Below, one piece after another: positions 11,954-24,989 of a stretch of DNA of 64,000 nucleotides; positions within the stretch are counted from its first letter, which is position 1; each line of letters opens with the position of its first letter. The notes beneath the pieces were generated by a model. The model saw only the letters and a program-made list of their open reading frames with translations, had not been told where the DNA came from and ran no database searches. A program made the translations under genes and the position numbers. Source of the DNA: Planctomycetota bacterium (GTDB lineage Bacteria > Planctomycetota > UBA1135 > UBA2386); the NCBI GenBank assembly GCA_046290465.1, contig JBKAGP010000001.1, positions 3,232,001 to 3,296,000 on the forward strand. Reading direction: 5' to 3'.

Positions 11954-14155
11954 GTGGACATGTCCGGAAGGCTGCTGATCGTCGCCAATCGTCTCCCGCT
12001 CGCCGTCGCAGCAGGGCCGGAGGGCCCGCGCATCGAGCACAACGCCGGCGGCCTCGCGACCGGCCTGCGCGGCCCGCACGAGTCGGGTGACGGCCTGTGG
12101 TTCGGCTGGGCCGGGACCATGACCGGCATGAAGGCGGCGCAGAAGAAGCAGGCGCTGCAGATGCTGCGCGACGAGCGCTTCGTGCCGATCGAGCTGAGCC
12201 GTCAGGAGGTCGAGGGCTACTACAACCAGTTCAGCAACGGCGTGCTGTGGCCGACCTTCCACTACCTCGTCGACCGCTTTCCCAATGAGGCGCCCGACTG
12301 GGAGACCTACCGGGCCATCAACGAGCGCTTCGCCGACGAGGTCGCCAGGGAATGGCGTCCCGGCGACCGCATCTGGGTGCACGACTTCCACCTGATGCTG
12401 CTACCGCAGCTGCTGCGCGAACGGCTGCCCGACGCGCGCATCGGGTTCTTCCTGCACATCCCGTTTCCGTCGTCGGAGGTCTTCCGGGTGCTGCCGTGGC
12501 GCGAACAGCTGCTGCGCGGCCTGCTCGGCGCCGACCTGATCGGCTTCCACACCCTCGGCTACCTGCGCCACTTCGCATCGTCGCTGCTGCGCGTGCTCGG
12601 CCTCGAGGTGGGCATCGACCGCGTCGACCTCGGCGATCGATCGGCGCGCCTGGTCGCGATGCCGATGGGCATCGACGTCGAGATGTTCGACGGCCTCGCC
12701 GACGAACCGGCCATCCGCGAGGCCGCCGAGTCGATGCGCACGCAGGCCAACGGCGCCAAGATCGTGCTCGGGGTCGACCGACTCGACTACACCAAGGGTC
12801 TGCCACGCCGCCTGCTGGCGTTCGAGCGACTGCTCGACATGCGCGGCCCGGATGCCCCGCGCGTGCAGCTGGTGCAGGTCGCGGTGACGTCGCGCAACAA
12901 CGTCAACGAATACAAGAAGCACAAGCGCGCCGTCGACGAACTCGTCGGCCGCATCAACGGCCGCTTCGCCACGCCCGACTTCACGCCGATCCGCTACATC
13001 AACAGTGGCCAGGACGCGCGCGAGGTCACGGCGCTCTACCAGGCGGCCGACGTCATGCTGGTGACCCCCCTGCGCGACGGCCTCAACCTGGTCGCCAAGG
13101 AGTTCGTGGCGTCGCGCAAGGACGACGACGGCGTGCTGGTGCTCAGCGAGTTCGCCGGCGTCGCCGCCGAGCTGCCCGAGGCGCTGAAGATGAACCCGTT
13201 CGACCTGCAGGGCACGGCCGAGGTCATCGCGGCGGCGCTGGCGCTGCCGCGCGAGGAGCGGCAGCGCCGCATGCAGGGCATGCGCGAGGCGGTCCAGCAC
13301 GGCGACGTGCACGCCTGGGTGCGCACGTTCCTGGACGAACTCGGGGACGCGAACGCCGACCAGCACGCACAGCCGGCCGACAAGGAGGAGCTGACGCAGG
13401 CGTTCGCCGAAGCCTCGGAGCGCGGGCCGATGCGGCTGTTCCTCGACTACGACGGCACGCTGGTGGACTTCCAGCCGCGCCCGGAGATGGCCGTGCCCGA
13501 TGCCCAGCTGCTGGAGACGATCCGGCAGCTGGCGAGCAGCGACGACTTCGACGTGCACGTCGTCAGCGGCCGACCGCGCGACTTCCTCGAACAACACTTC
13601 GGCCTGCTGCCGGTCGGCCTGCACGGCGAACACGGACTGGTCTCACGCATGGCCGGCAGGACCAACTGGGTGACCGCGCCGACGGGTCCCGGGCTGTGGC
13701 AGCCGCGCGTGCTCAACGTGCTGCGGCGGTTCGCTGCGCGCGTCCCCGGTTCGATCGTCGAGACCAAGGCGCAGTCGATCGCGTTCCACTATCGCCAGGT
13801 CGATCCGGAGTACGCGGCTTCGGTCGTCAAGGAGATCCGCGTGCACCTGACCGAGATGCTGAGCCAGTTCGGCGCGACGGTCATCTCAGGCAACAAGGTG
13901 CTCGAGGTGCGGCCGATGGGCATCAACAAGGGCAACGTGATCTCTCGCATCCAGGCCGAGGACGACGAGGCGACCACCGCGATGATCTTCGGCGACGACC
14001 GCACCGACGAGGACATGTTCGACGCCGCACCGAGAGGCGCGCTGACGGTCAAGATCGGCGGCGGCCGCACCGGTGCGCGCTTCCGGCTGGCTGACTGCCG
14101 CGAGACCCGCGCGTTCTTGCAGACGATGCTGACCCGCAGCAAGGCGCACGGCTGA
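11954..14155 (+). CDS. Bifunctional trehalose-6-phosphate synthase/phosphatase (OtsA-OtsB fusion)
   Basis: GT20 motifs (ANRLP, GGLATGL, WVHDFHL, FFLHIPFP, GVDRLDYTKG, DGLNLVAKE) plus HAD motifs (FLDYDGTL, GDDRTDEDMF). Start is GTG 11954 or ATG 11960. Confidence 0.95.
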   Translation: MDMSGRLLIVANRLPLAVAAGPEGPRIEHNAGGLATGLRGPHESGDGLWFGWAGTMTGMKAAQKKQALQMLRDERFVPIELSRQEVEGYYNQFSNGVLWPTFHYLVDRFPNEAPDWETYRAINERFADEVAREWRPGDRIWVHDFHLMLLPQLLRERLPDARIGFFLHIPFPSSEVFRVLPWREQLLRGLLGADLIGFHTLGYLRHFASSLLRVLGLEVGIDRVDLGDRSARLVAMPMGIDVEMFDGLADEPAIREAAESMRTQANGAKIVLGVDRLDYTKGLPRRLLAFERLLDMRGPDAPRVQLVQVAVTSRNNVNEYKKHKRAVDELVGRINGRFATPDFTPIRYINSGQDAREVTALYQAADVMLVTPLRDGLNLVAKEFVASRKDDDGVLVLSEFAGVAAELPEALKMNPFDLQGTAEVIAAALALPREERQRRMQGMREAVQHGDVHAWVRTFLDELGDANADQHAQPADKEELTQAFAEASERGPMRLFLDYDGTLVDFQPRPEMAVPDAQLLETIRQLASSDDFDVHVVSGRPRDFLEQHFGLLPVGLHGEHGLVSRMAGRTNWVTAPTGPGLWQPRVLNVLRRFAARVPGSIVETKAQSIAFHYRQVDPEYAASVVKEIRVHLTEMLSQFGATVISGNKVLEVRPMGINKGNVISRIQAEDDEATTAMIFGDDRTDEDMFDAAPRGALTVKIGGGRTGARFRLADCRETRAFLQTMLTRSKAHG

Positions 14156-14180
14156 CCCGCGTCGGGGCTAGCATGCGGAC

Positions 14181-14780
14181 ATGAAGTTCTGCAGCGACTG
14201 CGGCGGCGCCCTGGTCGACCGGGTGCCGCCCGGCGACGACCGCACGCGCCGATGGTGCGACGCCTGCGAGAAGGCGCACTACCAGAACCCGCTGGTCGTC
14301 GTCGGCTGCCTGGTCGCACGCGGCGACGAGATCCTGCTGTGCCGCCGCGCGATCGAGCCGGCGCACGGCAAGTGGACGGTGCCGGCCGGCTTCCTCGAAC
14401 TCGGCGAGACGCTGGCCGCGGGCGCGGCGCGCGAGACCTTCGAAGAGGCCGGCGCACGCGTCGAGATCGTCGCGCCGCACAGCCTGCTCGACCTGACCCA
14501 CATCGGCCAGCACTACGCGATGTTCCGTGCGCGGCTGACGTCGCCCGAGATCGAGGCCGGCGTCGAGAGCCTCGAGTGCGCCTTCTTCCCGCTCGACGAC
14601 CTGCCGTGGCGCGAACTGGCGTTCCCCGCGGTGCACTTCGCGCTGCGCCTGCTCCTCGACGACCGCGCGGCTGCGACCACGCATGTGCACCACGGCCAGC
14701 TGCACTGGACCGGCGAAGGCTCGCGCTTCGACGCGGCCAACTACGTAATCGAGGAACACCTACGCACACCTTTGGCGTAG
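14181..14780 (+). CDS. NUDIX hydrolase with N-terminal zinc ribbon
   Basis: MKFCSDCG...CDAC and Nudix box GFLELGETLAAGAARETFEEAG. Confidence 0.92.
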   Translation: MKFCSDCGGALVDRVPPGDDRTRRWCDACEKAHYQNPLVVVGCLVARGDEILLCRRAIEPAHGKWTVPAGFLELGETLAAGAARETFEEAGARVEIVAPHSLLDLTHIGQHYAMFRARLTSPEIEAGVESLECAFFPLDDLPWRELAFPAVHFALRLLLDDRAAATTHVHHGQLHWTGEGSRFDAANYVIEEHLRTPLA

Positions 14781-15002: not shown

Positions 15003-18000
15003 ATGCGTCTGTACGCGTCCCTGCTCTGCGCCGCGCTTGCCCTCACGGGCATCGCCCGCGCCCAGTCCACCCCTCCGTCCACGCTGCCGTTCCAGGCCCG
15101 GCTCACGCTGCAGTCGGGCGGCGTCGACGTGAACGCCTTCCTGCCGATCTCGTTCCGCGTCTACACGCAAGCGGTCGGCGGCTCGCCGCTCTGGGTCGAG
15201 ACGCACCCGCTGGTCGAGGTGAAGAACGGTCTGTTCAAGGTCGAGCTCGGCAGCCTCGTCGGCTTCCCCGCACAGCTGTTCGAGAACGGAGACCTCTACC
15301 TCGGCATCCAGGTCGCGACCGACAACGAGATGGCGCCGCGCACGCGGATCTCGTCGCAGGCCTTTGCCCAGGTCGCGAAGAACGCCATCGACGTCAAGAA
15401 CCAGGACATCAACCCCAACAGCGTGACGGTCAACGGCGTGCCGGTCATCGACGCCGGCGGCAACTGGGTCGGCCCGAACAGCGGCCTCGTCGGCCCCCAG
15501 GGCCCGGTCGGCCCGCAGGGCCCCACCGGTCCGCAGGGTCCGCAGGGCGCGCAGGGTGACGCCGGCCTGCAGGGCGCGACCGGCCCGCAGGGACCGCAAG
15601 GGGATCAGGGCATCCAGGGCCCAATCGGCCCCATCGGTCCGCAGGGTCCGCAGGGCGACCCGGGCATCCAGGGCGCCGTCGGCCCGCAGGGCGATCCCGG
15701 CATTCAGGGCCCCATCGGCCCGATCGGTCCCATCGGTCCGCAGGGCCCGCAGGGCGATCCCGGCGCCGCCGCGGCGCGCTACCTCGTCGCTCCGACGCTG
15801 ACCGACGGCGCGACCCACACCAGCATCCAGGCCGCCATCGACCAGGCCGTGCTCGACGGCTTCGGCACCGGTAACCAGACCAGCATCCAGGTCCGTCCCG
15901 GCTCCTACACCGAGGACGTCACGCTCGTCTCCGGCATCCACGTCTCCGCCGTCGTCGGCGCCAAGTCGTTCGCGACGCGCATCGCCGGCCAGGTCACGCA
16001 CACCAGCGGCGTCGTCTCGATGCAGGGCATCGACATCGACGCGCCCAGCGGCGACGCGCTGACGCTGTCCGGCGCCACCGCCCCGACGCAGCTCTACCTC
16101 AGCAACTGCGTCGTCTACGCGCGCGGCAACGACAACGCCCTCGAGCTGTCGCTCCCCGTCGCCAGCTCGTCCGGCCTGATCTTCGACAACGTCAACTTCC
16201 GCATCGTCGGCGGCGGCGCCGGCATCGCCGTCAACCTGCTCAGCGGCACGCTGCAGGGACGCAGCGGCACCTTCTGGCCCACCGCCCCGACCACCCCGTC
16301 GATCGCCATCAGCGGCACCGGCGCCAACCGCGGCCGCGCCTGGCTCAACAGCTGCGACATCTTCGGCAAGATCACGGTCATCGACGAAGGCGAGTGCTCC
16401 GTCTCCGGCGGCCAGATCCGATCCGGCCTCGGCTTCTGCGTCGAGGATTCGTCGGCCGGCACGATCGGCCTCTACGACGCCTTCCTGCAGCCCGACCTCG
16501 CCTACGCCGGCGAACTCGTCGTCACCGACGGCGACCTCGCCTACGGCCGCCTGACCTACAGCAGCCCGCTGCAGACCATGCCCGCCGCCGCGTTCCTGCT
16601 GCCCGGCTCGGGCCCCACGGGGCCGCAGGGTCCGCAAGGCGTCGCCGGTCCGCAGGGCCCGCAGGGCGATCCCGGCGTCGCCGGAGCGCAAGGCCCGCAG
16701 GGTGACGTCGGCCCGCAAGGTCCCGTCGGCGCGACCGGCCCGCAGGGCCCGCAGGGGGACGCCGGCCCGATCGGCCCGGTGGGCGCGACCGGCCCGCAGG
16801 GCGACCCCGGCCCGCAAGGCCCGGCCGGTCCGCAGGGCCCCGCCGGCGCCGACGGCGCCGCCAGCGCGCGCTACGTCGTCGGCATGGCGTCCGGCTTCGG
16901 CGTCACGCACACCAGCATCCAGGCCGCCATCGACCAGGCCGTTCTCGACGGCTTCGGCGGCAGCAGCCGCACCGCGATCCTGGTTCGTCCCGGTAGCTAC
17001 ACCGGCAACGTCAACCTCGTCGGCGGCATCAACCTGACCGCGCTCGTGCCGGGCAAGTCGTTCGCGACGCAGATCCTCGGCAACGTGACGCACACCGCCG
17101 GCGTGACCTCGATGATCGGCATCGACATCAACGCGACAGCCGGCGGCGACGCCCTGACCGTCAGCGGCGAGAACGCGTCGACGCAGCTCTACCTGAGCGA
17201 CTGCGTCGTCTACGGCTACGGCGTCGACAACGCGGTCGAACTCGACGTCACGACGGCGGGCAGCTCGGGCGTGTTGTTCGACAACGTCAACTTCCGCATC
17301 GTCGGCGGCGGCGCCGGCGTCGCGGCCAACATCGTGCGCGGCACGATCCAGGGCCGCAGCGGCACGTTCTGGCCGACGGCGCAGACCACCGCGGCGATCG
17401 CGATCACCGGCGACGGCTCGGCCAACGGCAAGGGCCGCGCCTGGCTGCGCGACCCGGACGTGTTCGGCAAGGTCACGCTCACCGGCAACGGCGAGCTGCA
17501 GGTCGGCAACGGCCAGATCCGCAGCGGCGCCGGCGTCGCGATCGAAGACGCGTCAACCGGCCCGATCTCGATCGGTAACTGCTCGATCCAGTCGACGCTG
17601 CCGAGCGGCGACGTGTTCACGACCGACGGCGACCTGTTCTACACGGGCCTGACGTTCTTGAGCCCGTTCCAGACGGTGCCGGCTGCTGCGATGCAGGCGC
17701 CGGGGACGAGCGTGATGAGTGTCGAGGTGTTCAGCGGGCAGCTGAGCAATGACATCGAGTTCACCAGCAGTTCGAGCAACACATACATCAACGCCAAGTA
17801 CGACACCGTGCTGCAGAACACTGCGCCGACGGCGGTCTTCGACAAGCAGGCGGATGGAAGCTTCATTATCCGACGCGCTGGCGTGCTCACGATTTCACCC
17901 ACGGTGTTTGCTCAGGGTAGCTCGTTCCTTTCGGTCTTCATCAAGGTCAACGGGGTGACGGTCAGCCAACTTCTCGACTATGGAAACTCAGCGCCAAGCA

Positions 18001-18134
18001 CGCCTGCTGGAACACACCACGTGAAGGTAGACGCGAACGACGTCGTGGAAATCCAGATGTCTCCGAGCCTGATCACCAACATCATCGTTGGCGGCTACAA
18101 CCAGCTCTCCATGAAGTGGACGGGAATCAAGTAA
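15003..18134 (+). CDS. Secreted collagen-like fibre/adhesin protein with two Gly-X-Y tracts and duplicated globular domains
   Basis: Signal peptide; 32 and 28 consecutive GXY triplets; duplicated domains starting [18 protein letters not shown]; beta-rich C-terminal domain. Confidence 0.85.
15483..15770 (+). repeat. Collagen-like 9-bp repeat tract 1 (32 GXY triplets)
   Basis: GPQ/GPI/GDP/GIQ triplets counted from the translation. Confidence 0.9.
16611..16862 (+). repeat. Collagen-like 9-bp repeat tract 2 (28 GXY triplets)
   Basis: [12 protein letters not shown] triplets counted from the translation. Confidence 0.9.
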
Positions 18135-18979
18135 TGCACCCTCTCCCCACCATCGCGACGCTGGCGGCGCTGCTCCTCGCAGCCCCCACCCTCACCGCCC
18201 AACACAAGGAACCCGGCCAGTCCAGCAGCCAGACCTACTACATGGTCAGCACCGAGTTCGGCAGCGCAGAGGCCGCGACGTCCCTGCTCTACCAGCTCCA
18301 GGGCAGCCAGGGCAGCGGCGTGGTCAACGAGCCGCACGCGGTCTCGCAGACCTACCAGATGCGCGGCGCGTTCTACGGCGCGAGCACCGCGCCGGTGCTC
18401 GGCCAGCCGCGGCTGACCGCCGCGCGGCCGTTCTTCGTGCGGCGCATCAACAACGGGCAGCTGTCGCTGACCGGCACTGAGCTGTGGCTCGGCCCGACGC
18501 CGACGATCACCGTCGGCGGCCAGAACGCGACGGTCATCACCCGCACGGTCGACGAGATCGTCGTGTCGCTACCCGATCAGCCGGAGCCCGGCTTCCAGCC
18601 GGTGACGTTCAGCAACCCGGTCGGCACGACGACGCTCGAAGAAGGCGTCGGGGTGCTGCCCATGCTGCAGCGCCGCGAGCCGCTCAACGGCGTCGACCCG
18701 AACTACCTCCGGATCGACACGCTGCCGAACAACGTCGTGCTGCTGGCGCTCGCGACCGACCTCGGCCCGGGCATCCAGACGCTGAACTTCGGCTTCCAAC
18801 TGCTGCTGGACCCGAGCTCGGTGTTCTTCACCAACGCCTACTTCGTCGCCGACCCGGACGGCCGCACGATCATCCCGCTGCCGCCGTTCCCGCCGGGGAT
18901 GCTGCACGCGCAGGTGCTCGACGTCACCGCCGACCCGGACGACTTCCCGGGCTCGTGGACCAACGTGGTCTCGCTGTGA
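18134..18979 (+). CDS. Secreted protein with an IPT/TIG-like domain, coupled to the collagen-like gene
   Basis: TAATG stop/start overlap, signal peptide and the Ig-like pattern LSLTGTEL..PTITVGGQNATV..EIVVSLP..VTFSNPVG. Confidence 0.7.
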   Translation: MHPLPTIATLAALLLAAPTLTAQHKEPGQSSSQTYYMVSTEFGSAEAATSLLYQLQGSQGSGVVNEPHAVSQTYQMRGAFYGASTAPVLGQPRLTAARPFFVRRINNGQLSLTGTELWLGPTPTITVGGQNATVITRTVDEIVVSLPDQPEPGFQPVTFSNPVGTTTLEEGVGVLPMLQRREPLNGVDPNYLRIDTLPNNVVLLALATDLGPGIQTLNFGFQLLLDPSSVFFTNAYFVADPDGRTIIPLPPFPPGMLHAQVLDVTADPDDFPGSWTNVVSL

Positions 18980-18982
18980 TCC

Positions 18983-19008
18983 CTGGCGCCGGCTGCCGCC
19001 GGCGCCAG
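18983..19008 (+). terminator. Perfect 11-bp hairpin after the collagen/IPT operon
   Basis: CTGGCGCCGGC-tgcc-GCCGGCGCCAG lies 4 nt after the stop. There is no U-tract. Confidence 0.5.
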
Positions 19009-19028
19009 ATCCGGCTAGCATGCTCAGC

Positions 19029-19331
19029 ATGAAGCCACCGTCGATGCTGGGGTCCGCCGCCCTCACGATGCTGTTCGCCTCCTGCGGCTCCTCTCCGGCG
19101 GACGATGTCAACGCTACCGCCAGCGTGCAGCTGGTGCTCAACAAGGTCCCCGATTGAGCCAGCTGTTGCGCCACCGTGCGTGGCGTCATCAAGAAGCTCC
19201 CCGGAACGGGCAAAGTCGACGTGCAGCCGGACAATGCCGAGATCACCGTCGCCTACGACCCGGACAAGATCACGGTCGACCAGCTGCTCGAAGGCATGCT
19301 GATGGGCGGCCAGCCGGCGAAGCGCCGCTAG
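19029..19331 (+). CDS. Candidate selenoprotein: HMA (CopZ/MerP-like) lipoprotein with a UxxC motif (in-frame TGA at 19155-19157)
   Basis: Manual translation: MKPPSMLGSAALTMLFASCGSSPADDVNATASVQLVLNKVPD-U-ASCCATVRGVIKKLPGTGKVDVQPDNAEITVAYDPDKITVDQLLEGMLMGGQPAKRR. It has a lipobox (FASC). The HMA pattern continues in frame past the TGA, which occupies the first Cys position of CxxC. Confidence 0.8.
19158..19198 (+). promoter_or_regulatory. Putative bacterial SECIS element
   Basis: Stem GCGCCAC (19168-74)/GTGGCGT (19180-86) closes loop CGUGC with G at loop position 2; 17 nt separate UGA from the loop. Possible lower pairing AGCT (19161-64)/AGCT (19195-98). Confidence 0.6.
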
Positions 19332-19805: not shown

Positions 19806-20792
19806 CTACTGCTGGCAGGCCTTGATCGCGCGCGCGACGTAGACCGGCGCGACCTTGCGGCGCCAGTAGACGTCGAGGTCGGTGTTGTCCATCGTGCGCG
19901 TCGGCTTCATGGCCGCGTTGCCGGCCTCGGCGATCAGCTCGTCGGTCAGCTGGTTGCCGACCAGCATCTCCTCGGACTTGGTGGCCGGGATCGCGTAGGA
20001 ACCGGCACCCCCGAGGCGGATGTTGGCCTTCTCGACCGTGCCGTCCTCGGCGAACCAGATCGCCGCGCCGACGCCGAGCACCGGGAAGTCGTAGGTGTCG
20101 CGGCGCCGCAGCTTGAGGTAGCTGGACTTCCAGTTGCCGGGGGCGGGCAGCGTGATTCTGGTCAGCAGCTCCTCCGGCTTCTTGGTCAGATACTGGATGC
20201 CGTCGTCCTGGTAGAGCTCGTCGGCCTTGATGGTGCGCGTGCCGTTCTCGTCGGCGAGCTCGACCTCGGCCTCCATCGCGCAGACGACCGGCACCGAGTC
20301 ACTGGACTGCACCGCCCAGCAGCGCGGGCTGCCCGGGGCGACCCAGCAGATCGCGCCTTCCTTCGACTTCATGCAGAAGTCGATCGACTCGCGCCACTCG
20401 TGCGACTGGTCGTAGTAGGTGCAGCGCGTGTCGAGCAGCAGGTTGCCGCCGATCGTGCCCATGTTGCGCAGCAGCGGCGTGGAGATCTCGCGCACCGCGT
20501 GGGCCAGCGACGGGTAGTGCGCCTTGAGGTGCGGGTAGTGCTCGAGCGCGGTCAGCGTGACCATCGCGCCGATCTGCAGGCGGCCGTCCTCGAGCACCTC
20601 GAGCGTGTGCAGCTCGGCAACGTCGCGCAGCGAGATCACCTGCTCGGGCGTCTGGTGACGCCGCTTCATGTTGGGGTAGAGGTCGGTGCCGCCGGCGACG
20701 TACATCGCCGCCTTGCCGTGTTGCTTGCTGAGCGCGACCGCTTCGCTGGCCGACTTCGGCGTGTGGTAGGAGAACGTGGGGAGACGCAGCAT
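19806..20792 (-). CDS. Xanthine-dehydrogenase-family FAD subunit, 4-hydroxybenzoyl-CoA reductase beta (HcrB)-like
   Basis: AGGTDLYPNMK, LRNMGTIGGN and the Cys insert RCTYYDQS..FCMK..ICWVAPGSPRC (extra [4Fe-4S]-type). Confidence 0.85.
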   Translation of the reverse strand: MLRLPTFSYHTPKSASEAVALSKQHGKAAMYVAGGTDLYPNMKRRHQTPEQVISLRDVAELHTLEVLEDGRLQIGAMVTLTALEHYPHLKAHYPSLAHAVREISTPLLRNMGTIGGNLLLDTRCTYYDQSHEWRESIDFCMKSKEGAICWVAPGSPRCWAVQSSDSVPVVCAMEAEVELADENGTRTIKADELYQDDGIQYLTKKPEELLTRITLPAPGNWKSSYLKLRRRDTYDFPVLGVGAAIWFAEDGTVEKANIRLGGAGSYAIPATKSEEMLVGNQLTDELIAEAGNAAMKPTRTMDNTDLDVYWRRKVAPVYVARAIKACQQ

Positions 20793-20805
20793 TTCGGGTT
20801 GCTCC

Positions 20806-23373
20806 TTACTTCGCGGCCTTCTTGGTGCGGTGCGGGTCGTTGTGGGCCTTGCCGTCGCCGCCCTGCCACGGAGTCTTGACCTGCAGCGACTCCCCGAAGT
20901 CGACGTTCGGCACGCCGGTCTCGTCGTTGGCCGGGCCGTAGCGCCCCTCCTTGCCTTCCTTCTTCGCCTGCATCGCGGCGAACACCTTCTCGAACGAGAT
21001 CGGGTTCTCGTCGACGCGCACGCCGACGGCGTCGAACACCGCGTTGGCGACCGCCGGCATGATCGGGAGCAGCGGCCCCTGGCCGACCTCCTTGGCGCCG
21101 AACGGGCCGTTCTTGTCCGGGTCCTCGATGACGTAGGTCGTGCACTCCGGCATCTCGAACACGCTCGGGCTCTTGTACTCGAGCATCGACGGGATCTTGT
21201 GCAGGAACACCCGCTTGCCCTTGTGCGAGCGATCGCGGTAGGCCATCTCCTCCATCATCGCTTCGCCGAGGCCCATGTAGATCGAGCCCTCGATCTGGCC
21301 CATCGCGATCGCGGCGTTGAGCGCGCGGCCGATGTCGTGCGCCATCCAGACCTTCGGCACGCTGTAGATGCCGGTATCCGGATCGACCTCGACCTCGACG
21401 ACGGTCGCCGAGTAGCTGTAGCTCGGGCTCGGACCGACGCCGCCGCCGCGGAACTTGGCGGCGGTCTTCGGCGGCGTGTAGCTGCCGACCGTGCCGATCG
21501 TGCCGAGCGCGGCCTCGGCGAAGCCGACGGCCTCCTTGAACGTCACGCCCTTCTCGGGGTCCTGCGAGTCGAACACGCGGCCGCCGTGGAACACCAGCCG
21601 GCCGGCCGGCACCTCGAGCTTCTTCGAGGCGCCCTGCGCGACCAGGTCGCGGGCCCGTTCGGCGGCCTGCATCGCGGCGTTGCCGGTCATCACCGTCACG
21701 CGCGAGCTGTAGCTGCCGAGGTCGACCGGCGTCAGGTCGGTGTCGCTGGTGACGACCTTGATGTCGAGCGGATCGATGCCGAGCACCTCGCCGACGATCC
21801 AGCCGAGCACGCTGTCGCTGCCCTGGCCGATGTCGGTGCTGCCGCAGAACACCGTGCACAGGCCCGAACGGTCCAGCTGCAGCTGCACGCCGGAGTGCGG
21901 CATGCCGTTCCAGTAGATCGGCAGGCCAGCACCCGACAGGTAGCTGGAGCACGCCAGGCCGAGGCCGCGGATGCGGCCGTTCGGCAGCACCTCCTGCTTG
22001 CCGCGGCGCTCCTTCCAGCCCGAGCCCTCGACGACCTTCTCGATGCACTGGCCGAGGCCCATCGAGCCGATGCGCAGGAAGTTCGCGGTCAGCGAGTCGC
22101 GCTCGGCGAGGTTGTCGAGGCGCATCTGCGCCGGATCGAGGCCGAGGTCACAGGCGACCTTGTCCAGCTGCACCTCGAGCGCGAAGCGCGGCTGCACGGT
22201 GCCGTGGCCGCGCTTGGGGCCGCACGGCGCCTTGTTGGTGAAGAACCGCGCGCCGCGGAAGTGGTAGTTCTCGACCGCGTAGGTCACCGTCTGCAGCGCA
22301 CCCGTATAGAACGTGCTGGCCGTGCCGTAGCTGCCGTAGGCGCCGCCGTCGAGGAAGCTGTGGAAGTCGAGCGCGGTGATGCGGCCGGTCTTGGTGACGC
22401 CGATCTTGCTGCGCATCAGCACCGGGTGCCGACCGCGGTGGCACCAGAACACCTCTTCGCGGGTCAGCGCGACCTTGACCGGGCGGCCGGTCAGCATCGA
22501 CATCTTGGCCGCGCAGATCTCGTGGTTGAACGGGTCGCTCTTGCCGCCGAAGCCGCCGCCGTTCGGGCACGCGATGACGCGGATCCGGTTGGCGGGCAGC
22601 GGCGCCAGCACCCGGGCGAGCGCGCGGTGCAGGTAGTGCGGCGTCTGCGTCGACGACCAGACGGTCAGCTTGCCGTCCTTGTCGAAGTGCGCGAGGGTCG
22701 CGTGCTGCTCCATCGGCAGGTGCGTGTTGCCCTCGAACCAGACGGTGTCCTCGCGGATGTGGTCGGCGCGGTCGAAGCCGTCCTTCATGTCGCCGAACTC
22801 GAGGTTCTCGAGACGGTGGATGTTGCCGCGCACACCGTAGTCGTGCAGGCGCGGCTCGTCGTTGTCGGCGGCTTCGTGCACGCCGCCGATGGTGCGCAGC
22901 TCGCGGTACTCGACGTCGACGAGGCGGCACGCGTCCCACGCGATCTCCTCCTCGGTCGCCGCGATCGCGACCACCGGGTCGCCGACGAAGCGCACCTGGT
23001 CGGGGCACAGCGCGTGCTCGTCCTGGCTGACCGGCAGGATGCCGAACGGCGTCGGCATGTCCTTGCCGGTCAGGATGCCCTTGACGCCCGGCAGCTGCTC
23101 GGCCTTGGACGTGTCGATGCTGACGATCTCGGCGTGCGCCATGGTGCTGCGCAGCAGCTTCATGTGCAGCATGCGCGGCAGCGTCATGTCATCGGCGAAC
23201 TGCGTCAGGCCCGAGACCTTGCTGCGCGCGTCGACCTTGCGGATCGGCTTGCCGATGTGCTCGAGCTCGTCCTTCTTCTTGTCGTGCTGCCACGGCGCGT
23301 CGTCGCGCGCCTGCGGAGCCGCCGGCTCGTTCGACTGCCCGTCGAGGCGGGCCTGCGGGTCATCAAGAACCAT
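20806..23373 (-). CDS. Xanthine-dehydrogenase-family molybdopterin-binding subunit, HcrA-like
   Basis: GGGFGGK, PKRGHG, DIGQGS, DLGSYSSR, GQIEG and PFGAKEVGQG motifs. Confidence 0.9.
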   Translation of the reverse strand: MVLDDPQARLDGQSNEPAAPQARDDAPWQHDKKKDELEHIGKPIRKVDARSKVSGLTQFADDMTLPRMLHMKLLRSTMAHAEIVSIDTSKAEQLPGVKGILTGKDMPTPFGILPVSQDEHALCPDQVRFVGDPVVAIAATEEEIAWDACRLVDVEYRELRTIGGVHEAADNDEPRLHDYGVRGNIHRLENLEFGDMKDGFDRADHIREDTVWFEGNTHLPMEQHATLAHFDKDGKLTVWSSTQTPHYLHRALARVLAPLPANRIRVIACPNGGGFGGKSDPFNHEICAAKMSMLTGRPVKVALTREEVFWCHRGRHPVLMRSKIGVTKTGRITALDFHSFLDGGAYGSYGTASTFYTGALQTVTYAVENYHFRGARFFTNKAPCGPKRGHGTVQPRFALEVQLDKVACDLGLDPAQMRLDNLAERDSLTANFLRIGSMGLGQCIEKVVEGSGWKERRGKQEVLPNGRIRGLGLACSSYLSGAGLPIYWNGMPHSGVQLQLDRSGLCTVFCGSTDIGQGSDSVLGWIVGEVLGIDPLDIKVVTSDTDLTPVDLGSYSSRVTVMTGNAAMQAAERARDLVAQGASKKLEVPAGRLVFHGGRVFDSQDPEKGVTFKEAVGFAEAALGTIGTVGSYTPPKTAAKFRGGGVGPSPSYSYSATVVEVEVDPDTGIYSVPKVWMAHDIGRALNAAIAMGQIEGSIYMGLGEAMMEEMAYRDRSHKGKRVFLHKIPSMLEYKSPSVFEMPECTTYVIEDPDKNGPFGAKEVGQGPLLPIMPAVANAVFDAVGVRVDENPISFEKVFAAMQAKKEGKEGRYGPANDETGVPNVDFGESLQVKTPWQGGDGKAHNDPHRTKKAAK

Positions 23374-23884
23374 AGATCGACTCCTTGCTCGGCTCGGCGT
23401 CCTCACCGCGCATGCGCGCGGCGGCGAGTTCGATCGCCTCGAAGATCTTCAGGTAGCCCGTGCAGCGACACAGGTTGCCGGCGAGGGCCTCCTTGATCTC
23501 GTCGCGCGTCGGGTTGGGGTTGTCCTTCAGCAGCGAGTCGGCCGCCATCAGCACGCCCGGCGTGCAGTAGCCGCACTGGGCGCCACCGAGGTTCGCCATG
23601 CAGTCCTGCAGCGGCGCGAGGTCGCTGCCGCACGCGAGCCCCTCGACCGTGCGAACCTCCTTGCCGACCGCGTCGACGGCGAGCACCAGGCAGCTGAGCA
23701 CCGGCGTGCCGTCGACCTGCACCGTGCACGTGCCGCACTCGCCGAGTTCGCAGCCGTGTTTGGTGCCCGTCAGGGTCATCTCCTCGCGGAGGACCTCCAA
23801 CAGGGTCTTGTGCGGCAGGAACGCCACCTCGTGCGGCTCGCCGTTCACCTGGAACGTCGCGAGTACCTTGTTCGTCTCGGTCAT
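23363..23884 (-). CDS. (2Fe-2S)-binding small subunit, HcrC/CoxS-like
   Basis: GTKHGCELGECGTCTV...SC and QCGYCTPG...NLCRCTGY motifs. Confidence 0.93.
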   Translation of the reverse strand: MTETNKVLATFQVNGEPHEVAFLPHKTLLEVLREEMTLTGTKHGCELGECGTCTVQVDGTPVLSCLVLAVDAVGKEVRTVEGLACGSDLAPLQDCMANLGGAQCGYCTPGVLMAADSLLKDNPNPTRDEIKEALAGNLCRCTGYLKIFEAIELAAARMRGEDAEPSKESIYGS

Positions 23885-24035
23885 GGGGGCGAGCAGGATA
23901 GCGGCGGCTCTGCGGCGGAGCGAGGGCGACGTCGCCCGATTGGCGCCCCCCGCCACAAGCGGCAGCACGGCCCTCGGATACGCCAATCGTCGGCCGGTGC
24001 CCGCAAACCGGCCGCGGCGCACGTAGGGTGACGCC

Positions 24036-24989
24036 ATGCCCACCGTGCGCCCAATCCTCGTTGCCATCGCGCTGCTCGCCGCCGCACCGACCGTCGCCAG
24101 CCAGGCGGGACCGCCGCCGCCGGTCGTCTGGCGGATCGGCTCCCAGCTCGACGAGTTGCTGTCCGGGTCGACCCCATGGGTGCCGATGCTCGGCCGCAGC
24201 ACGCTCAGCGTCGGTCGCTACCGCCTGCCGGCCGGCAGCCGCGACGGCCAGTCGCCGCACGACCGCGACGAGGTCTATTTCGTGGTCGCCGGCAAGGCGA
24301 AGTTCACCGCCGCCGGCGAGACCCGCGACCTGCGCGCCGGCGACACGGTGTTCGTGGCCGGCAAGGCGAAGCACCACTTCCACGACATCACCGAGGACCT
24401 CGACGTGCTGGTGTTCTTCAGCGACGCGGTCCCGACCACCGGCGGCATGATCGCCGGCCCGAAGCCGACCGAGCAGACGCCCTATCCGGAGACCAGCGCC
24501 CGCGGCTCGACGCGCATCTTCTACTGGTACGGCCCCGACTCGGCCGGCCAGGTCGCGATCGACCATGGCCGCCCCCGCTGGAACGGCCGCTACCAGCGGT
24601 TCCTCGATCAGCCGTCGAAGCGCCGCTGGCGGCTCGGCGAGAACTTCTGGACGACGCTCGACACCAACATGGCGCTGACCATCGGCGACACCGAAGTGCC
24701 GATCGGCGCGTACTACTGCGTGCTGCAGAACGACGCCAACGCAGGCCTCGAGCTGGTGCTGCTCGACCCCGACGAGGTGCGCCGCCGCCGCCTCGACGCC
24801 TACGAGGTGAGCAAGACCACGGGCGGCATCCGGATCGGTCTCGAGAAGGGCAAGGCCGCGGTGCCGGCGGGCCGGCTGGAGATCACGCTGGACGTGGACC
24901 GCGCCCATCGCGACACGGGCACGTTTCGGATCCGCTTCGGCGCGCACGAGATGTCGGCGGGACTGAAGATGCACCCCCATCGCAAGTAG
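24036..24989 (+). CDS. Secreted cupin + DUF2911-like fusion protein
   Basis: Signal peptide; cupin motifs QSPHDRDEVYFV and HHFHDI; C-terminal TSARG..IDHGRP..WRLGENFWTTL resembles DUF2911. Confidence 0.7.
   Translation: MPTVRPILVAIALLAAAPTVASQAGPPPPVVWRIGSQLDELLSGSTPWVPMLGRSTLSVGRYRLPAGSRDGQSPHDRDEVYFVVAGKAKFTAAGETRDLRAGDTVFVAGKAKHHFHDITEDLDVLVFFSDAVPTTGGMIAGPKPTEQTPYPETSARGSTRIFYWYGPDSAGQVAIDHGRPRWNGRYQRFLDQPSKRRWRLGENFWTTLDTNMALTIGDTEVPIGAYYCVLQNDANAGLELVLLDPDEVRRRRLDAYEVSKTTGGIRIGLEKGKAAVPAGRLEITLDVDRAHRDTGTFRIRFGAHEMSAGLKMHPHRK

Follow-up and report, generated by a model that had tools for sequence, protein, structure and literature searches.

Metal loops of the HMA type that contain selenocysteine (Sec, U) have already been catalogued: the UxxU metal-binding family NF041115, a 'cation-transporting ATPase E1-E2, UxxC' and a mercuric transport protein are all listed in Table 1 of one compilation (PMC13188914), which also states that the roles of such predicted Sec-bearing metal-handling proteins need further study. 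NF041115 (UxxU_metal_bind), which appears as 'putative mercuric reductase' in selenoprotein catalogues, consists of an HMA-type domain on its own, whose metal loop contains Sec, and two stand-alone examples under the latter name with hydrophobic, signal-peptide-like N-termini are found in the accessible part of the deep-Sep supplement (PMC12013277). NF045683 ('putative mercuric transport protein', PF02411) is a MerT/CopZ fusion-like selenoprotein with an HMA part, and these entries taken together bear out the remark, made in a first-pass annotation of the locus described here, that MerP-like Sec proteins had been predicted earlier. Among the proteins of the same fold, MerP (TIGR02052; PDB 1osd, 1afi) is an exported single HMA domain, CopZ is cytoplasmic and carries the motif G-M-x-C-x-x-C, and the metal-binding domains of P1B-ATPases, like CopZ/Atx1, hold their ligands at the same U/C-x-x-C position as the protein reported here. 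The folds and ligands of CusF and of the Staphylococcus aureus protein CopL differ from those of an HMA protein. According to the accessible text of PMC11672702, CusF, a periplasmic Cu(I) chaperone, and CopL, a Cu-binding lipoprotein, serve in extracytoplasmic Cu(I) capture, and although neither matched our protein in sequence they can be viewed as its functional analogues, as the role proposed below would likewise consist in the capture of Cu(I) outside the cytoplasm, next to efflux systems. For a lipid-anchored family of UxxC HMA proteins there is no entry in PMC13188914 (Table 1), PMC9312934, 10.1101/2022.07.06.499078, PMC1976440 or PMC13326102, as far as the accessible portions of these sources extend, and the online BSepDB and bioRxiv supplements may hold members.

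The gene analyzed here lies in a window of 64,000 nucleotides from a Planctomycetota bacterium (GCA_046290465.1, contig JBKAGP010000001.1, positions 3,232,001 to 3,296,000), and all positions below refer to this window unless another genome or contig is named. A read-through coding sequence on the forward strand (19029..19331) extends from the ATG at 19029 to the TAG at 19329-19331 with a sole in-frame TGA at codon 43 (19155-19157), and translation of this TGA as Sec yields a protein of 100 aa with U43-x-x-C46. The coding assignment draws on the translation, the PF00403 match, the structural model and dN/dS. As the first-pass annotation had pointed out, a plain ORF list shows no gene at 19029-19331, and the coordinates, the TGA at codon 43, the length of 100 aa, the lipobox FAS-C19 and the motif U-A-S-C-C were all found where it had placed them. 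By sequence pattern, a lipoprotein signal peptide is predicted at 19029..19085 (+) with the lipobox F-A-S-C19 (Cys codon 19083-19085), and C19 is invariant in all 26 aligned members, which suggests lipidation at this residue. The HMA domain (residues ~31-99, 19119..19325, +) has the order beta-alpha-beta-beta-alpha-beta and is supported by PF00403, for which the read-through protein scored 35.1 bits against a cut-off of 24.8, as well as by AlphaFold2 and Foldseek. An AlphaFold2 model built with 26 family sequences and Cys in place of Sec had a mean pLDDT of 81.6, with 69 residues above 90, a confident domain and a disordered N-terminal stretch of 25-30 residues. The best match to this model among solved structures was MerP 1osd (rmsd 1.6 A over 70 columns), followed among the top matches by domains of the Menkes and Wilson ATPases and CopZ. 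In the alignment with solved HMA domains U43 (19155..19157, +) falls on the first Cys of CxxC and C46 on the second, which agrees with the earlier claim of a MerP/CopZ-type fold with the TGA at the first Cys. Its lipobox and linker indicate that the window copy would be a membrane-tethered, extracytoplasmic HMA domain.

The metal loop nevertheless departs from that of typical CopZ, MerP and ATPase domains. While U-x-x-C is present, the Met at -2 of G-M-x-C-x-x-C occurs in none of the 75 family rows, and the family has G-E or G-Q where known HMA domains carry G-F, so that the site may behave differently. Residues invariant in the 26-row alignment are the lipobox Cys, U43, C46, V50, R51 and V74. 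Directly after the invariant second ligand C46 the window copy has an additional Cys47 (both codons 19164..19169, +), and the first-pass annotation had singled out this UxxCC arrangement as a feature of interest. Across the 75 family rows the column holds V (57), A (16), L (1) and Cys (1), the last being the window copy itself; UxxCC was accordingly rejected as a family trait, and Cys47 probably represents the mere replacement of a small hydrophobic residue.

Scores against the described families place the protein outside all of them. All 26 aligned family members match the NF041115 model weakly, and the window protein reaches 36.3 bits against a cut-off of 95; it has one Sec (UxxC) where NF041115 lists two (UxxU), and in contrast to the catalogued examples it carries a lipobox and a flexible linker and lacks the G-M/I-T-U motif. 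For MerP (TIGR02052) the score was 38 bits against 92.55, and the protein differs from MerP by Sec in place of the first Cys, by its lipid anchor and by a genome that has no merT or merA over cut-off. Likewise, the CopZ models gave 32.3 bits against 91 (NF033795), 23.9 against 95 (NF033794) and 19 against 62 (TIGR00003), the lipoprotein signal and the absence of Met at -2 being further differences from CopZ, while NF045683 gave 17.9 bits against 375 for a protein of only 100 aa that has no MerT membrane domain. Three other members scanned singly were also far below the NCBIfam cut-offs. By its fold the window protein would work like MerP and CopZ, but by score, motif and context it is not a member of those families. 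JGI/IMG lists full-length Cys homologues as 'copper chaperone CopZ' and 'mercuric ion binding protein'. The lipid-anchored UxxC family as a whole falls far below the cut-offs of the catalogued Sec-containing HMA proteins.

Several lines of evidence bear on the reading of the TGA as Sec. The source genome (G000) encodes selA, selB and selD over cut-offs, the last with an in-frame TGA of its own, as well as a tRNA-Sec of 72.8 bits, so that the machinery named by the first-pass annotation as a check is complete. With simple gene calls TGA closes 2905 of 4734 well-scoring genes in this genome and is its main stop; it is therefore not reassigned, and a global reassignment was rejected. Two paralogs in the same genome, 46% and 37% identical to the window protein, have TGA at the same column and repeat the 14-nt core of the hairpin with unchanged spacing. 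When 40 relatives were analyzed together with the source genome, 17 of the 41 genomes (16 of the 40 relatives) gave matches, and 32 of the 33 matches carried one TGA, the lone exception being a distant Cys protein. Similarly, among the distinct members of at least 50 bits (n = 36, a count that left out one further TGA member dropped by a motif filter), 34 had TGA and two had TGC at the Sec column, hence the proposed comparison of homologues came out in favor of TGA rather than Cys. In addition, three full-length Cys proteins were found among the representatives of a large protein collection, and the TGA aligns to their Cys. The Cys versions seen in genomes occur where the Sec machinery is retained (G016, G306). 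Both selA and selB are present in all 19 other TGA-member genomes checked; since selA (50 of 53) and selB (49 of 53) are nearly universal in the genomes tested, this co-occurrence discriminates little.

A sequencing variant, another concern raised at the outset, is contradicted by contigs of three other runs (X2, X4 and X20), which show no change at 19155-19157. The X20 contig, from an RNA run and lying inside the gene, is a variant with eight differences, five of the six listed being silent in the read-through frame and one silent difference among those listed lying downstream of the TGA; such a contig cannot show transcription, strand or level. A further run, X1, may be the source of the window, and the evidence excludes 16 other listed runs with small or incomplete word shares and four with none. 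Values of dN/dS downstream of the hairpin were between 0.04 and 0.41 in 10 of 11 pairs, the eleventh (G031/G038, downstream 4.3) being invalid because a one-codon indel shifts the gap-free comparison. Selection is purifying on both sides of the TGA. The window copy, with 0.28-0.41 downstream of the TGA against two orthologues, is at the upper end of this range and has a longer branch.

The SECIS-like hairpin (19169..19185, +) consists of a stem formed by 19169-19174 and 19180-19185 around the loop CGUGC (19175-19179), starts 17 nt after the UGA and has a G at the second position of the loop. The accessible text of PMC1088965 describes bacterial SECIS elements as stem-loops immediately 3' of the UGA whose small apical loop contains a G, and the window hairpin has this feature. 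Of the 7-bp stem described in the first-pass annotation, the position, the loop and the 17-nt spacing are correct, but there are six Watson-Crick pairs and a seventh forms only as G-U or after a bulge. Folded as a single sequence, the hairpin exceeds chance by a modest margin only (z -1.3 to -2.0, and +0.6 for a longer piece), and the case for it rests on its conservation. Throughout the family, positions 15-20 (counted from the U of UGA) pair with positions 26-31 around the loop; in 34 TGA genes 95.1% of the cells were paired and 31 cells were changed on both sides, counts which are inflated by the relatedness of these genes, whereas none of 500 shuffles was as high and slid controls reached at most 53% paired and at most 9 both-side-changed cells. 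The A-U/G-C swap at 19-27 went in the same direction in about five of seven independent pairs and never in the opposite one (sign test p ~0.06), and the C-G/U-A swap at 18-28 went the same way in two of two, both counted on the 70-row tree, in which approximately half of the rows were selected by a pattern with part of the hairpin fixed. At 19-27, the replacement of Thr by Ala or the reverse on one arm is coupled to a silent change of the Arg codon on the other, and CGT, which makes up only 7% of the Arg codons in the source genome, is used in 25 of the 34 family TGA genes. By contrast, the two Cys genes seen in genomes keep one and two of the six stem pairs. An RNAalifold consensus chose another register (columns 11-17 with 26-32), which was without covariation. 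Conserved at fixed spacing, with compensatory changes and mostly lost in the two Cys versions, the hairpin sustains the earlier SECIS proposal and can be viewed as an RNA signal that shapes the protein sequence, as Thr/Ala and Gly/Ser swaps keep its base pairs.

The family extends well beyond the source genome. A DNA pattern combining the TGA with the hairpin gave 100 matches in 92 loci among 185,579 species genomes, comprising 64 family genes (56 loci), 27 members of other Sec-HMA groups and nine chance matches; because the pattern was built from the TGA and the hairpin, these data are usable for distribution and gene context and not for the conservation of either element. The 64 family genes come from records titled Planctomycetota or unassigned 'bacterium', and in all 70 distinct TGA genes were obtained, whose named records are likewise Planctomycetota or unassigned bacteria. 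An unrooted tree of 73 columns with these 70 genes, the pattern-selected ones included, and five Cys rows has the Cys rows in five separate places, and it groups the window copy with its orthologues in G007 and G014 as sister to the source-genome paralog at C1:2.971 Mb (99/89). Current annotation splits these genes. Public protein collections carry the window gene as its two fragments, and the gene of the cultured Engelhardtia mirabilis Pla133, which has selA and tRNA-Sec, is split into Pla133_03960 (a hypothetical protein of 45 aa, WP_419192034.1) and Pla133_03970 (52 aa, 'HMA domain-containing' in UniRef). A word-indexed search with the read-through protein returned nothing among proteins of 55-175 aa, while in a profile search against 1.84 billion representatives proteins with several HMA domains dominated the result, and only three of the top 150 were single-domain and family-like. 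None of the 89 pattern matches from a back-translated scan that required Cys at the Sec column was a confirmed relative, and two stop-free matches of ~51 bits were noted in G014:C21 and G011:C241. We are thus dealing with an uncatalogued selenoprotein subfamily of at least 70 genes that gene callers and NCBI split even in a cultured strain, and its recognition makes the annotation correctable and the protein testable.

Upstream of the gene, the hexamer TAGCAT (19016..19021, +) sits 7 nt before the ATG at 19029, as had been noticed before, and is a putative -10 box of a leaderless or near-leaderless transcript. TANNNT motifs are enriched 6-10 nt before the ATG of 3485 genes in the source genome (139, 95, 65, 64 and 66 hits as compared with ~10 per position further upstream), suggesting that many transcripts of this organism are leaderless, and TAGCAT, the commonest hexamer of this type in that interval, also precedes the source-genome paralog L050 and L033. 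The hairpin that had been reported between the gene and the upstream operon is present as an 11-bp GC-rich inverted repeat (18983..19008, +; z -2.6) after the upstream gene (18116-18979); no U-tract follows its stem and a terminator scan found nothing there, hence it is not a classical intrinsic terminator. The combined sigma-70 promoter and terminator scan likewise found nothing.

A stand-alone gene, the window copy is flanked by a TIG-like gene and by a convergent gene of unknown function, and no metal genes occur within ~10 kb of it or of its orthologues in G007 and G014. On the upstream side, 15003-18979 (+) encodes a 1043-aa collagen-repeat BclA-like protein and a TIG-like protein. These genes are absent from the syntenic locus of G007, in which the orthologue lies between NUDIX and methyltransferase genes that also flank the window region, and they probably represent a later insertion. 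On the other side, a xanthine dehydrogenase/4-hydroxybenzoyl-CoA reductase-like molybdo-flavoenzyme operon occupies 19806-24202 (-), with TIGR03194 as its best match (773 bits, below the cut-off of 994.55).

Other members of the family are found beside copper genes. The paralog at C1:2.971 Mb of the source genome follows an ECF sigma factor with CxC and a Cys-rich tail, features of CorE/ECF44 according to the accessible text of PMC4937300, a copper P-type ATPase (TIGR01511, 590.7 bits against a cut-off of 397; CPC, YN and MxxSS) and a TRASH/YHS-like protein. The surrounding region (G000:C1:2940000-3015000) is an island of lower GC content (61-66% as compared with 70%) that contains the CorE/ECF44-like sigma factor, the copper ATPase, TRASH/YHS-like proteins, a multicopper oxidase and, with CusC/B/A-like genes, two RND heavy-metal efflux systems. 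Adjoining CusA-like genes, G000:C1:2991650-2992260 (-; L101 ~13640-14260) encodes a secreted protein with two tandem HMA domains, each with G-M-T-U-G-G-C and its own hairpin with the loop CGUGA. In G002, G009 and G011 the order is CusA-like gene, multicopper oxidase, small lipoprotein and Sec-HMA gene, and G001 has the same arrangement without CusA on a short contig. Among the 49 family loci of at least 3 kb, 12 have copper genes within 3 kb, 13 have a conserved 860-aa protein or its neighbor upstream, five adjoin TPR or glycosyl-hydrolase genes and in 19 the neighbors are different, leaving 37 of 49 with no copper gene within 3 kb; moreover, the copper-linked copies are related and partly located on islands and are therefore not independent. 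The 860-aa protein (L022:7074-9659; G000:C1 ~3217070-3219660, -), for which no Pfam or NCBIfam match was obtained, lies directly upstream of one or two Sec-HMA genes, often tandem pairs, in many relatives and also precedes the Cys version in G016. CusF (PF11604) was not found in the source genome or in 20 carrier genomes, which are 69-96% complete, with a model that may miss distant CusF proteins. No merT or merA was over cut-off in the source genome and merA was so in only one of 20 carriers; the window gene has no mer operon context, and a mer-operon role received no support. In the source genome five HMA domains exceed the Pfam cut-off; each of them coincides with a Sec codon and lies in a protein with export signals. 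Of the three metals that the first-pass annotation had considered (Cu, Hg and Ag), gene context favors copper as the likely one.

Three other explanations have to be considered. If the TGA were a true stop, through a nonsense mutation, a sequencing error or the existence of a 42-aa lipopeptide and a separate 51-aa fragment started at GTG, this would agree with the two fragments that public collections contain for the window gene and for Engelhardtia mirabilis, and an in-frame GTG does occur seven codons after the TGA. However, 70 distinct genes have their TGA at a single column and code for proteins that diverge down to 21% identity with the window protein, this codon aligns to Cys in full-length homologues, selection is purifying on both of its sides and is accompanied by a covarying hairpin at fixed spacing, and a split would run through the metal site and divide the domain there. 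This explanation is very improbable and already largely refuted, whereas Sec recoding of the TGA at 19155-19157 is, on the sequence evidence, scarcely open to doubt, and the gene is almost certainly a real selenoprotein gene, in confirmation of the original prediction.

With a selenoprotein accepted, the question of its function is less settled. The interpretation towards which we lean, though only somewhat more than evenly, is a Sec-recoded, lipid-anchored HMA protein acting as a periplasmic Cu(I) buffer or shuttle. In this model SelB, acting on the in-frame hairpin, would deliver Sec-tRNA to the UGA at codon 43, and the exported product would be lipidated at Cys19 and hung by a flexible linker from the membrane on its extracytoplasmic side. 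As judged from the fold, the Sec43 selenolate and the Cys46 thiolate of the HMA domain would together ligate a soft metal, Cu(I) being the most likely one; as judged from the paralog context, the protein might take Cu(I) exported by CopA-type ATPases and hold it or pass it to a multicopper oxidase or Cus pump, where no CusF was found. The window copy itself, which belongs to the clade with the majority of the copper-operon copies, would stand alone and probably have a promoter of its own. Selenolates remain ionised at low pH, have a high affinity for soft metals and are quickly reduced back, and this chemistry would suit an oxidising compartment. The protein could instead serve at the envelope as a sacrificial sink for soft metals in general, among them Hg(II) and Ag(I), which would protect the exported selenoenzymes and have no dedicated copper partner; we regard this as unlikely. 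Such a role would agree with the high affinity of selenium for mercury, with MerP as the best structural and best NCBIfam match, with the occurrence in Anaerolineae of related GMT-U-x-x-C domains as fusions to MerT-like proteins, encoded immediately downstream of merA-like C-termini, with the lack of copper neighbors at most family loci, that of the window included, and with the many other Sec candidates of the source genome, several of which have signal peptides; yet the scarcity of mer genes described above speaks against it, and the metal-related neighbors, among those annotated or queried, are copper systems. Less likely still is a redox couple, in which U-x-x-C would form a selenenyl-sulfide on an HMA scaffold, for example in an envelope thiol-redox relay, with metal binding being secondary. 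A redox function is assumed for the majority of UxxC selenoproteins (PMC13188914), the family has lost the canonical Met and the loop aromatic of HMA domains, and Sec-bearing TlpA-like and DsbD-like candidates of the genome could recycle such a protein; the fold, however, is that of HMA and not of thioredoxin, and the metal-linked contexts point to copper. The copper contexts, the lack of a detected CusF, the lack of mer genes and the occurrence of all detected HMA domains at Sec codons are the reasons for which the Cu(I) buffer or shuttle is favored over both. More tentatively, and with the balance tilted against it, one may propose that extracytoplasmic copper trafficking in this lineage runs on selenium, Sec-x-x-Cys HMA lipoproteins replacing CusF between CopA and the multicopper oxidase or Cus pump; if this were true, tolerance of copper would hinge on the supply of selenium. 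In the literature searched we met no account of a natural copper chaperone based on a selenolate. As the protein has only 100 aa, natural Sec and Cys versions occur at the same site and copies lie in copper operons, the family offers a clean system for studying the contribution that selenium makes to a metal-binding loop in an oxidising environment.

Further Sec candidates were observed in the course of this analysis. A heuristic scan of the source genome gave 210 read-through candidates, many of which are ordinary gene junctions; at least ~30 show typical selenoprotein motifs as judged by eye and not from family models, namely of thioredoxin/TlpA, peroxiredoxin, MsrA, AhpD, rhodanese and deiodinase-like types, and several have hairpins with CGUGA or GGUC loops. 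Candidate sites include C1:1207500, 1208315, 1298630, 4520491, 4807444, 4807804, 5433827 and 6461678. A DsbD-like membrane protein with a C-terminal UxxC is among the candidates, and the adjacent TGAs at 4807804 and 4807444 lie in one frame that combines a VPGUxxC thioredoxin-like part with an MsrA-like part. At G000:C1:1515880-1516470 (+) a secreted protein has two in-frame TGA codons in HMA-like repeats without the second Cys (U-S-A-A and U-G-G-T). Outside the source genome, Anaerolineae and related Chloroflexota records (L148:2455-3195, L142, L181, L207) encode MerT-like membrane proteins with a C-terminal G-M-T-U-S-G-C HMA domain, which in L142, L181 and L207 directly follow a merA-like C-terminus; since the fusions of L148 and L207 score far below the cut-offs of NF045683 and NF033556, they possibly constitute another uncatalogued Sec group. 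Records titled Planctomyces, Planctomycetaceae and similar contained a second group of lipoproteins (L145:2839-3192, L172, L188, L201 and others), which carry L-P-E-M-T-U-G-G-C and a hairpin of the same type. Finally, L071 and L078 (G100, G205) encode HMA-like lipoproteins with M-D-U-G-Q-U and thus two Sec residues, and several further matches from the phylum also have two TGA codons.
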